From Naegleria gruberi (Eukaryota): a DNA stretch of 64,000 nt. Under the pieces are notes generated by a model. It made no database searches. It was not told the DNA's origin and saw only the letters and a program-made list of their open reading frames with translations. Within the stretch, counting starts at the first letter, position 1. Every line of letters begins with the position of its first letter. Where the stretch lies: the NCBI GenBank assembly GCA_000004985.1, contig GG738855.1; one strand, written 5' to 3'. Shown piece after piece: positions 57,946-62,833 of this stretch. The position numbers and the translations under genes were made by a program.

Positions 57946-60900
57946 TTATTGTTGTAACTGGTTTCGGATTGTGTTTGCTTCATAAGAAGAGATAATACTT
58001 CTTCCTCTAGTTTTCCTAGTTACTGCTTCCTCTTTTTGTTCGATACTTTGTGCAGAGGTCCTCATAAATTCATTCATTTCTTCATCGGTTGGCATTGGTT
58101 TCGTGTGGTGTTCATCATTCAGCAAGTAACATTTTGTCATTCCCTTTCCTTTCACTTCGATATTCCTCTCCTCAAAAACAAATCCCAAATCATGAACTCT
58201 CTCATAGGTTGATCTGGTTATCTGTATTCTTCCTGAAAGAGATGTTGATTCCATTCGAGAAGCTGTGTTAACTGCATCACCCCACAAATCGTAGGCAAAC
58301 TTTTTGGTTCCAATCACACCAGCCACAACTGACCCAGTATTGATACCAATGAATGTATCACCTCTCTTCAATCGTTGGGCAACTGATTCAGGTAAGATAT
58401 TCTTCAATAGATTTTCAGAGTGTTTCTTCTCGTCTTCCAACAGAGCTGCTGCCTTTTTTTCTGAGGTGATATCCTTTATGGTTAAAATAATTAGAACGCC
58501 CTTTCCTGATACCTTAACTGTGAAAAGATTGAGTTTTGTTGGGAATTTTGTTCCATTTTTTCTTAAACATTCGGATTCTAATGAATCATGACCTCCACTA
58601 TCATTTCCTGAAAACTCATTTACGAGGGCACTCACTGATTTTCTGACAGATTCTTTTGTTTTCCCTTCCTCGAATATGGAATAGAAGGAGGTTCCAAGGA
58701 TTTCCTGTGTTGCAAGACCAAGCATATTAAGGGCTGGTGTGTTGATTAGTTCCACTTCTCCTTCTGTATTGATGATTATTGAACCATCAACACTTGAATT
58801 AATTACAGAGCATACGCCCGAATAAGATCCTTGTCCTTCATCTGATTGCCTTTCTGATTTTAGACTAAACTTATTAGACAATGGATCTGAGAATAGATTG
58901 TAGAGTGCTAAATTCTTCAATCTCTCATTGTTTTCGAGAGTTTCAATAGGAATATAATTCAATAGCATCTTTGTGTAGTAATATTGATTAGAATTCGACC
59001 CCATAATTGAGAGAATCAATTTACAAAAAATTAAAGAAATACAAGTACCCAAAATAGTAAATAACAATACAGAAACATAACTGGATTTCTGAAGAAACTC
59101 TTGCAAATTCTTGCATAAATGATGCTAGTTTTAGAGAGAGAGGATATGACCTAGCTTGATTAGTGTAATGTTCAAAAAACAAGGTACTAATTTCTTGCAT
59201 TGTAAAGTTGGTTGACTGGTATTTGTAGAATTTCTTAGTTAACTCAGACACTTTGGATGAAGTTGAAACAAATTCAGACATCATATATTCGACACCAATA
59301 CAATAACTATAGTAATTTTGCACATTAAATGTAAAATTATTTGCTTGCAAATATTCAGTACAATTATCTGAAACTCCAAATTTCAATGTCTTGTCCATCG
59401 ATGGATAGATACCAACAAGAGGTGTATCGTATGCTAAATATTATGGAAATTATCAGTAATTAAATTGAGGTTGAAACTTACGAATATTAATATTACCAAA
59501 TATCAGATCCGTATAATTAGACGAAAGTCCATCAATTTGATCCAAAAGAATGTGGCTCAGCTCGTCAAATGTAGAACTAGTTCTTAAAAACGGATGGGCA
59601 ATGTTAGTAGCCCCAAAGTTGTTGGTATTTCCTAAACCATAAACGGATAAAAGTTCTGATAAGTAGTATCCACAAATTTGTACAAAATAAATTACTCTAG
59701 CTCCAGCTTGAATATTATAATAAGTTTTGAGTGCGCTTACTGCATTTCCATTAATTTCATTATAAAACATTCCCAAACAAAATGGGTTGACTAAAACCAA
59801 AACCATGACTGAAACTATGAGGGTGTACTTGGCTTTGGTAATTTTCGAAATCAAACTGGAATCAAGTGAAGAGTCAATAGATGATTGCTTGGAAAGTGAC
59901 TGATATATTCTAGCTATCTTGTCTCTTGGAGTCTCCTTCTTGATTGTTTTTACCAATCTTTTAAGGTAGTACTGTCTGTAAAGAACAGTAATAATGAAGC
60001 ACATAGCGATTGGCAACAATGCTAAACTACCAGCTACGAGATAGATTTGAAAATACGATAATAATGAAGTTGTGGATAATTGGCTAGAATCTACATAATT
60101 CGAACAAAATGCAGACAGAACATCAAATGCATTATCTCTGTTACTCCAATAATACATGAAACTATAGTCCTGTATAGAATTCATGAAAGTACCATTAATA
60201 ACAGACCTAACGAGCTGATCTCTTGTTGATTGAGAAATTGTTGTGGAGTTGGACAATAACAATAAATCATTGAGAGGAAAACTTTCTTGGATTCTTTCTA
60301 AGAAGCTTTTCAGATTATTGGTAAATTCATTGACTGATATTCTTCTTATTTGCACTGTACCTGAATAGTATCCATTGTCTCTAATCGTAGGAATTAATGC
60401 TGTGTGTTCTCCTGCACCGTAACTATTTATGAAATTAGCAAAAGAGCTCAATAAACTTACGCTGTATAGATAGGAGCATCAAAAACACCTTTTTGTGCAA
60501 GTAATATCAAATCGTGTAGAACATTCTTGTCATTTTCCATTCTATGAAGATAGTTTTGGATATATTCCTTTAGTAAGAGTTAGAGAATGTTATATTGGAG
60601 GGATACTACTTACCTGAAAGGTTTCTGTTGGGAGACTATCATATTCTGTCTTCCAATCACTTCCATAATTAATATAATAATTAATTGCACTTTGCATACT
60701 TCTGACATTTCTTATTACAGACATTCCAACTTCCTCAGTCAAACAAGCAGAATTCAAGTTTACAACACCAACTCTAATCGAAGATCCAATGTAAATAGCA
60801 AAAGAAGCGCCTCCTAAACCAACACTGAAAATGATCACAAAAATTAAAATAAACAGACTGTTTCTCAAACTTTCGTTTGGTTTGTTCCTAATTCCATTCC

Positions 60901-62833
60901 TGAACAATAGGTCCTTGTGCATTTCATGTTCTTCTTCTTCGTCTACCTCACTTACTGGTGCTTCAGAGAATAAATCAGATTCGGTAGGATCGAATGAAGT
61001 TGGTACTACTTGTGACTCTTTTCTAGGCCTTTTAGCACTCATGTACAAACCTCTTGCATCCTTTTCCAATCGATTGGCTTCTTCATAGAGGGTTTCAGAT
61101 TTCACCTTGTCAAACTGAAAAAGCTCAACGTACGTGGCATACAACCTGAGAATCTGTTTACTTCTCTTACTTCCCATTAATTCCTCAAACATTTGATTAC
61201 ATTCCACTGTAATCTCTGCAATCTTATTTGCAATCTTTTCAATGGTCGAGTATTGTGGTGATTCTTCAATAAGTTCCTTCCAAAAGTCTCTGTGGAGAGA
61301 CAGAAGCATATCCTGATTGTATTTCAATTCTTTGATGGTTCCATCGTCACCCAAATCAGAACTATTAATTGATGAGATATTTAGCCTATGCTCTTGCAAT
61401 TCTAATGATTTGTATAGGGAAATAGTTCTCATAAAAATATTCTTTGAATGTCTAACAATATGGTAGAGTATATCAATGGATTTGTCCAAATTGATGCTCT
61501 CATCTTCTTCTGCATGAGCTAACAGCATGGAAATGTAAAATAAACATTTAGGATCTCTGATATTCTTATTTATGAGCGTCTTGGCAGTAAGTAAATATAA
61601 TTCCCTTTCTGTCACATCTCCAGCAACAATTGCATGCTTTATTCTATGGTATTGACTAAAATAGAAGCTTAATTTAGAGAAATATCCTCTTCCATGATTC
61701 TCTTGCATAATATTTGTACAATTTACATCAACGCATGCAAGAATTGACTTTCTGTCAGATGATTTCAGATCAATCCCACTGAGTAGGGTTTTTCTGACTG
61801 AGTTGATTATCAAGCGCTGGTACAATTCCATCAAGATTATGAAAATAACAAAGAAAATGATTGCCAAGCCAAATGTCAAAGGCAGGCCAATTATTTGTAA
61901 ATAGAAATTATTTCCCTTCAGTATAGTAGAAACCAGTGAACCAATAGAAACGCCTGTTCTAGCACCTGCAACAGCAAATAATATTGAATTATCAACAGTA
62001 TTAAAACATGTCTTGAAATAGAATGTAACTGAAGCAAATATCAAGCTCATTACAATATTCAATGAATCTGAGATGATCTTGTATTCCAATGGAATTGAAA
62101 ATATGAGTAATACACCCATAAAGTTTACAATGTCAAGCGTCATAATATGAATGGGATAAGATGAGCAAAAAGGAACCCTATCATAAGTATTCATGTCACT
62201 AACAATCAATCTATTCAGGATTATTAATGCAAAGAGTATTGCCAAACATCCAATAGCTAATACAATTACTACCATGTTTCCAGAATCAATACAAGATACT
62301 TGATTGTACCTGTACAATAGTCGCTCCAATGTAGTTTCATTAATGAGATTCGAACAATTATAAAATCCCACCAGTATGTTTACGAAAAGAGGAGAAAGTA
62401 CAAGAAGTAAATTACCAAATATCCATAATCCTATTCTTACATATCTAATATTATCGAGTGCTTTCGTAACTACCCACACAGAGGCAATGCAAAGAACCAA
62501 ATTCATCATGACAAACATCATAACACCCAAACCTATTCCAATACTTGCATAATATCCCCACATGTCCACCAGCAATGTAATGGGGAAATTGATTATTGAA
62601 TATATTATATTCGAGTATAACTCTCCTACCTCTCCATTTCTAATCGAAGGAATAAACACAGAAATATACAGAAATAAGGAATGAAACAATAGAGTTGATA
62701 GATACCATTTCCATCCACGCTTTGAACCCTGTATCTTTACGGAAAGGAATGTGGAGAGAGTATTTTGGAGAGTCTTATTATTGAGGTTGGCTCTAATCAA
62801 ATTCTGACTAATCGAACTGCCAATATCAGTCAT
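57946..62833 (-). CDS. Polytopic membrane protein with a PAS domain and a truncated class-III nucleotidyl-cyclase homology domain. It has several exons (62833..60590, 60451..59453, about 59398..59110 and 59106..57946) and the internal junctions are unresolved.
   Basis: The N-terminal exons encode more than 12 hydrophobic helices (FHSLFLYISVFIPSI, LGVMMFVMMNLVLCIASVWVV, LLLVLSPLFVNILVGFY, VVIVLAIGCLAILFALIIL, LPLTFGLAIIFFVIFIILMELY, ...). The 3' exon has a PAS-like segment (INTEGEVELINTPALNMLGLATQEILGTSFYSIFEEGKTKESVRKSV...NGTKFPTKLNLFTVKVSG), then [17 protein letters not shown] followed directly by [40 protein letters not shown]. This is the C-terminal half of a class III cyclase catalytic domain (R-IGIHTG-VVAGVIG...YD.WG..VN.ASRME). 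The roughly 90-residue metal-binding half is missing. Confidence 0.5.

Follow-up and report, generated by a model that had tools for sequence, protein, structure and literature searches.

In Naegleria gruberi NEG-M, the gene at locus NAEGRDRAFT_64855 belongs to a known, uncharacterised Naegleria/Willaertia family of membrane-bound PAS adenylate cyclases (1500-1800 amino acids) and is broken. It lies in a window of 64,000 nucleotides (nt) of contig GG738855.1, the whole stretch of DNA that was analysed and to which all coordinates given here refer, where a single gene on the minus strand fills 62833..57946, with its ATG at 62833 and its stop codon at 57946-57948. Compared with an intact relative, the gene carried two lesions: an in-frame deletion that removed the first half of its class III nucleotidyl cyclase domain, and, upstream of it, an extra C that shifts the reading frame. 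The explanation we favour, with a probability of roughly 60%, is that NEG-M genuinely and recently lost the function of this gene, the loss being fixed or limited to one haplotype; the gene or allele would then be a disabled one, that is, a pseudogene. Its lesions would accordingly be biological in origin and recent, and its product would probably be without function.

The last open reading frame (ORF) of the gene, at 57946-59106, crossed the site of the deletion uninterrupted, with neither a stop codon nor splice signals. The cyclase remnant in this ORF (58117..58350, minus strand) was delimited by a Pfam search and by alignment with paralogues. The ORF matched the Guanylate_cyc profile (PF00211) with an E-value of 3.2e-25, solely at profile positions 104-182 of 183; in intact homologues positions 3-182 were covered, an extent that the window ORF did not reach. 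An earlier note, made from the DNA letters alone, had described half a cyclase domain in a continuous reading frame, preceded by a lead-in helix and a PAS-like segment, and all of these elements were confirmed. The PAS domain (PAS_9, ORF residues 107-214; 58465..58788, minus strand) was found with an E-value of 6e-15, and the coiled lead-in or signal-transducer helix of 35 residues (58351..58455, minus strand) matched the final 29 positions of the HNOBA profile (188-216 of 216). The same note had put the missing segment at about 90 residues. A segment is indeed absent, but it is larger than that: it comprises approximately 106 residues when the paralogue P0020 is the reference (its residues 143-248), and the figure rises a little with L002 or P0019, two other intact family members.

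Alignment to class III cyclases mapped the deletion to the strands and helices that hold the metal-binding Asp pair and a Lys residue. The two metal-binding motifs, F-x-D-hydrophobic-x-G-F-T and IKTIGD, were absent from the window, both lying within the deleted segment, and were present in the alignment in L001 (protein P0017), L002, P0019, and P0020. In the Lys...Asp pair that defines ATP as the substrate, the Asp of YDLWGD was kept and the adenine-binding Lys of EKIKTIGD was gone. The transition-state Asn and Arg residues (AVNTASRME, matching xVNxASRME) were retained in the remnant, which was 62% identical to P0020 and had every family motif of the retained half intact.

The intact state of the same site was found in L001, a metagenome contig of 2636 nt (run ERR1078381, project PRJEB11402) carrying P0017, which is the best match of the last ORF and is 95% identical at the protein level. 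L001 aligned with positions 60715..58347 of the window with 98.3% DNA identity including the introns, and the differences amounted to 37 substitutions and 3 single-base insertions or deletions (indels), 2 of the latter being intronic. Identity stopped at 58347, within the deletion junction ATT/GGT (Ile-Gly; 58345..58350, minus strand). Past the GDTFI motif, L001 ran on with an intact first half, AEALADVSVFFSDMVGFT...EKIKTIGDAYFAVG. Its DNA beyond 58347 read GCTGAAGCACTTGCT..., encoding AEALADVSVFFSDMVGFTKISSGLPPVDLVRMLNTVINGFDDLTEKFQLEKIKTIGDAYFAVG, and the protein continued as AEALADVSVFFSDMVGFTKISS...EKIKTIGDAYFAVG, followed by a 51-nt GTAAGT...AG intron and then by GVGNTQSDH. The part of the first half in front of this intron, which sits after AYFAVG, corresponded to PF00211 positions 4-64. 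In the window, the deletion joins ...ACATTCATT (GDTFI) directly to GGTATCAAT... (GINTG); in total about 0.35-0.4 kb, as estimated from the paralogues, is deleted, consisting of approximately 105 codons and the enclosed intron, and the reading frame is preserved across the junction. The earlier proposal of a pseudo-cyclase by design, or of a half-enzyme in need of a partner, was not sustained by this comparison, since a relative with 98.3% identity has an intact first half and an intron at that very place.

A second contig of run ERR1078381, L084, was 99.2% identical to the window over the 5' end of the gene and the upstream intergenic DNA. Because this identity reaches into intergenic DNA, the locus in L001 and L084 is the same one, in a strain closely related to NEG-M. 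The first half in L001 was identical to P0020 at 42 of 63 positions (counted by eye), which is near the 62% identity of the second half in the window to P0020 and argues against a chimeric contig. Exact look-ups with the exon-1 and exon-3 ORFs and with the neighbouring ZIP-like gene gave no record of an independent contig carrying the locus. A scan of metagenome contigs with the last ORF found no second copy of it, and the pattern KKFAYDLW retrieved distant, mostly bacterial-type cyclases. Among N. gruberi proteins no intact, near-identical second copy was found, the best paralogues being 27-62% identical. Other genes of the window also have near-identical cluster mates in ENA (P0007, P0013), perhaps from the same sample as ERR1078381.

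That an unrecognised exon, alternative splicing, or trans-splicing provides the missing half is barely conceivable. Introns do occur inside the domain in this family, where AYFAVG precedes one in L001 and FFSDM precedes one in L002, but the junction in the window lies within a continuous ORF free of splice signals, and L001 holds the missing codons at exactly this genomic position. In a tblastn search with intact paralogues, no copy of the missing first half was found anywhere in the 64 kb, where the flanking segments alone matched. Likewise, no complete PF00211 domain, whether after splicing or with an extra exon, was obtained within the window by Pfam or tblastn searches, in agreement with the earlier note.

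The second lesion was an extra C at 59083..59084 (minus strand), the sole coding indel between the window and L001, which produces a +1 frameshift: alignment with L001 showed CC (GAAATCCAGT) in the window and a single C (GAAATCAGT) in the relative. The frameshift separates the exon-4 sequence ...FMQEFARVSSEI from SYVSVLLFTILG..., the part with the last transmembrane (TM) segment, the PAS domain, and the cyclase remnant. The homologue L002 reads through this site in the frame of L001 (FMNEFVRVSGELSLVMLLIF). The public gene model (EFC47405.1, XP_002680149.1, D2V7M3, NAEGRDRAFT_64855) is the unshifted translation of 1226 amino acids with the identical three introns. It stops 26 codons past the frameshift, at a premature stop codon in the shifted frame (59021..59023, minus strand), so that the product ends in ...RVSSEIQLCFCIVIYYFGYLYFFNFL*. 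The open frame 3' of the frameshift (57946..59082, minus strand), delimited as an ORF and by Pfam, comprises the last TM segment, the PAS domain, the lead-in helix, the half cyclase, a tail, and the stop codon; this PAS/half-cyclase ORF is present in no annotated protein. The modules of the family, a membrane part followed by PAS, transducer helix, and cyclase, are in order on the DNA, and the frameshift intervenes before they can form one polypeptide. The single polytopic PAS/half-cyclase polypeptide envisaged in the earlier note was not borne out, because the extra C uncouples its two parts and the annotation ends at 1226 amino acids.

Two other accounts of the frame change were tried and rejected. 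A 10-nt near-tandem duplication (TGCAAGAATT/TGCAAGAGTT; 59115-59096, minus strand) was ruled out as its cause, since L001 shares the duplication without a gap. A 70-nt intron (GTCATA...CCAG; 59150-59081), considered as a way around the frameshift, has a non-consensus donor site, whereas the clear introns of the gene begin with GTAAGT and are 38-48 nt long; it would also take out 23 residues that L002 has conserved and that L001 reads through.

When the 745 codons shared with L001 were compared, 18 synonymous and 16 non-synonymous differences were counted, giving synonymous (dS) and non-synonymous (dN) divergences of 0.039 and 0.009, respectively, and a dN/dS ratio of 0.24. All 16 replacements, when viewed against outgroups, fell at sites that vary within the family, and the 386-codon frame 3' of the frameshift was still open. 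As judged from these codons, purifying selection acted over nearly the whole time since the window and L001 separated. The ratio of 0.24, the open frame, and the intact motifs together imply that the lesions are either very recent or not real.

If they are not real, the NEG-M gene would be intact, and the missing stretch of approximately 0.37 kb, the extra C, or both would be errors of the draft Sanger assembly, such as a deleted clone or a miscall. We consider this artefact unlikely, though it is the main rival to the favoured explanation. The closest relative, L001, has neither lesion, the frameshift falls in a homopolymer of two bases, and a dN/dS of 0.24 with perfectly kept motifs is what is expected of an intact functional gene. 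On the other hand, consensus errors do not usually take the form of a clean, in-frame gap that swallows several hundred bases of unique sequence, and two independent lesions would have to have arisen within about 0.75 kb; the remaining differences from L001 (the 37 substitutions and the 2 intronic indels) resemble ordinary variation.

A recent loss-of-function state remains the explanation that we prefer, and when set beside L001, an orthologue that is both close and intact, the locus does carry disabling lesions, namely a frameshift and a catalytic-core deletion. Several points nevertheless weigh against it. The relaxed constraint of a pseudogene, with a dN/dS near 1, was not seen at 0.24, so that the gene is a pseudogene only if its inactivation was very recent, and the same ratio is just as compatible with an artefact in a gene that functions. 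The lesions are those of the draft sequence, and either of them could be an assembly error or exist on one haplotype only. L001 ends 268 nt beyond the 5' breakpoint, and both the length of the deletion and any ATTG microhomology at its ends are estimates based on paralogues. Finally, the in-frame deletion spares every catalytic residue of the retained half, and a function of the remnant is possible.

Such a function, which is the idea of the earlier note in another form, would require that degenerate products are made and used: an output-less, TmcB-like membrane protein of 1226 amino acids, a soluble PAS plus half-cyclase protein of 352 amino acids started from an ATG at 59004 and paired with one of the many paralogous cyclases as a regulatory or dominant-negative partner, or both. 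The ORF of 386 codons is open and has an internal Met right after the TM segment, and the Asp, Asn, and Arg residues that were kept are the contribution of the C2-type half in heterodimeric cyclases. An AlphaFold2 model of the segment from the PAS domain to the end of the protein, built with a 40-sequence alignment, predicted the PAS domain and the helix confidently, with a predicted local distance difference test (pLDDT) score above 90. The junction and the adjoining core strands, which are normally buried, scored 31-41 in the same model, and the other elements scored 65-91. These scores hint faintly at a fragment without its sheet partners and not at an autonomous half-domain. We regard functional products of this kind as improbable, because half of the fold is gone and not catalytic residues alone, with the core strands at the junction predicted to be disordered, and because the remnant and the membrane part lie in different frames. 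The arrangement was found in the DNA of no other family member, partial domains elsewhere having been traced to mis-spliced models, and no near-identical protein was found from any transcript or other assembly. Moreover, the half-domain state is absent in a relative with 98% identity, and thus it has not been maintained over time. A variant with a still smaller chance, which we rate as very improbable, is that the NEG-M state is both real and used, with the 1226-residue protein serving as an output-less TmcB-like sensor and the soluble fragment perhaps docking on paralogous monomers in a dominant-negative or allosteric manner. If this were true, the locus would be a snapshot of a pseudo-cyclase regulator arising in a family of about 100 members.

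Under the loss-of-function explanation, the ancestral protein would have consisted of a polytopic membrane part with a TPR_TmcB module, two loops framed by TM segments, a cytosolic PAS domain, a transducer helix, and a complete class III cyclase domain. By analogy with known cyclases, an intact family member would be expected to dimerise and to make cyclic AMP (cAMP). The deletion would have arisen possibly between short ATTG repeats and would happen to be in frame; the other event would have been a 1-bp insertion of C approximately 730 bp upstream of the deletion. With this insertion the last TM segment, the PAS domain, and the remnant are out of frame, and consequently a protein begun at the ATG terminates at residue 1226. 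With the deletion and the frameshift together, the locus cannot make a cyclase.

The remainder of the gene, on the minus strand throughout, consists of four exons separated by three introns of 46, 38, and 48 nt, each of the form GTAAGT...AG, whose splice sites were located and are shared with the annotated model. Exon 1 (60614..62833; 747 codons), identical to the corresponding part of the annotated protein P0205 (EFC47405.1), encodes about eight N-terminal hydrophobic segments, a cytosolic TPR_TmcB region, and one more TM segment, as judged from a hydropathy scan. The TPR_TmcB domain (PF25474; residues 507-593, 61055..61315) was found with an E-value of 1.1e-12 and a score of 48.4 bits (cut-off, 27). 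Intron 1 (60568..60613) is followed by exon 2 (60461..60567), intron 2 (60423..60460), and exon 3 (59482..60422), which encodes the first loop of about 215 residues and two TM segments and ends in a brief linker on the cytosolic side. Intron 3 (59434..59481) leads to exon 4, whose part 5' of the frameshift (59085..59433), delimited by its ORF, by codon comparison with L001, and by the annotated model, contains the second loop region. The hydropathy scan gave approximately 10-13 TM segments for the whole gene model; the protein is polytopic, as the earlier note had claimed, and that note's count of more than 12 TM helices lies at the upper edge of this range.

Two loops of about 215 residues, each flanked by TM segments, had no Pfam match. 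The first is encoded by 60125-60422, 60461-60567, and 60614-60800 (residues ~679-903), and the second by ~59100-59433 and 59482-59870 (residues ~989-1198). As their outline is kept in L002 and in the family alignment, these loops are candidates for extracytoplasmic sensor regions. Downstream, a convergent ZIP-like transporter gene (EFC47274.1; ORF 56681-57889) has its stop codon within approximately 60 nt of that of the cyclase gene.

Homologues of the gene were collected by an exhaustive HMMER (phmmer) search against 1.84 billion representatives with exon 1 alone as the query. A word-index protein search was weak on long, TM-rich queries (the 1581-residue model and the 747-residue exon 1) and missed both P0017 and the annotated protein. 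The phmmer search gave 68 homologues, 18 of them with E<=1e-30, and homology of the polytopic N-terminus and the TPR_TmcB module extended across exon 1, which places the gene in the family. The named homologues, of approximately 1400-1830 amino acids, came from N. gruberi, N. fowleri, N. lovaniensis, and Willaertia magna. The N. gruberi paralogues comprised NAEGRDRAFT_61738, 81665, 72081, 71278, and 69917, and the protein EFC43412, named "adenylate/guanylate cyclase". Among 27 long members, TPR_TmcB was detected in 26, PAS_9 in 24, and Guanylate_cyc in 22, and both cyclase halves were present in all full-length members that bear a cyclase domain, mis-spliced models excepted. The family consensus has the Lys of EKIKTIGD and the Asp of YDLWGD, as is typical of adenylate cyclases. 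The gene on contig L002, a full-length homologue, was collinear with that of the window throughout, first exon and C-terminal tail included, apart from the gap, with 45% identity in the PAS region; its cyclase domain was complete (PF00211 positions 3-182), with an intron after CFFSDM. The gene itself was all that L002 and the window had in common in their synteny, and therefore L002 comes from a paralogue or from a rearranged genome. N. gruberi is known for some 80-100 cyclases, and a pangenome study of the genus Naegleria reported "at least 81 cyclases" (PMC9928731).

Some other members look partial. The model of P0141 (NAEGRDRAFT_61738) ends at ...CFFSDM, and in P0173 and P0179 the first half is garbled; these three appear partial because the gene models mishandled the intron inside the cyclase domain. 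P0040 (N. gruberi, 459 amino acids, encoded outside the window) matched PF00211 only at positions 87-182 of 183, and the PAS-like segment in front of this match is cut. Mis-splicing of the model is the probable cause here too, although it could be a second deletion. The gene of the window is unlike P0141, P0173, and P0179 in that the genomic DNA itself is continuous over the gap. Beyond this family, the TPR_TmcB region of exon 1 matched, weakly but significantly, "PAS domain S-box protein" sequences of Tetrahymena malaccensis and T. thermophila (P0202/P0216; approximately 1806 amino acids) with an E-value of 1.5e-4, a sequence match which hints that the combination of a TmcB-type module with PAS may occur beyond Heterolobosea.

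The half-cyclase architecture should thus not be recorded as a new domain organisation, as it reflects a lesion in one copy of a recognised Naegleria cyclase family. For annotation, NAEGRDRAFT_64855 represents a frameshifted gene that has been read in truncated form, and the downstream PAS/half-cyclase ORF of 1.1 kb belongs to the same gene. Where a Naegleria protein set shows a partial cyclase domain, the underlying DNA has to be checked: introns interrupt the domain, and for this reason most such cases are mis-spliced models. Should the lesions be real, they represent a dated gene loss (dS of about 0.04 from the intact relative) in an expanded signalling family.

The gene was finally compared with known systems. 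The earlier note had set it against the dictyostelid cyclases ACA/GCA, ACG, and ACB, a frame that proved unsuitable: the genome is that of N. gruberi NEG-M, with nine of ten long ORFs from all over the window matching NCBI proteins of this strain exactly, and the architecture is heterolobosean. Dictyostelium has nevertheless one point of contact, TmcB (tiny macrocysts protein B), from which PF25474 derives and which has a reported part in cAMP signalling in sexual development; it has the TPR_TmcB domain in common with the gene. TmcB of Dictyostelium was not among the 68 phmmer matches to exon 1, and a literature search for TmcB returned irrelevant matches only. The closest systems are uncharacterised database entries, namely N. 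fowleri FDP41_006627 (1827 amino acids), N. gruberi NAEGRDRAFT_72081 (1736 amino acids) and NAEGRDRAFT_81665, and N. lovaniensis C9374_003576. With the group of FDP41_006627 and NAEGRDRAFT_72081 the gene of the window shares, in collinear order, the polytopic N-terminus, TPR_TmcB, the TM-framed loops, PAS_9, the transducer helix with its LLKNILP motif, and the cyclase motifs. Genes of the FDP41_006627 type have a complete PF00211 domain (positions 4-182 of 183) in a single frame, whereas the window copy is without positions ~1-103 and is frameshifted 5' of the PAS domain. The environmental N. gruberi-like strain of L001 and L084 has the same exon structure at 98.3-99.2% identity, but has the single C and the intact first half. 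Among class III cyclases of solved structure (mammalian AC8, AC9, AC5, and AC2 C2/AC5 C1, and mycobacterial enzymes), P0020 aligned over the full domain with E-values down to 4e-66. The remnant in the window corresponds to the class III segment that opens with the IGIHTG strand and takes in the rest of the domain, including the Asp of YD.WG and the Asn and Arg residues. The mammalian C1 and C2 halves are complete folds without some of the catalytic residues, whereas the window copy is without the first ~105 residues of the fold itself.

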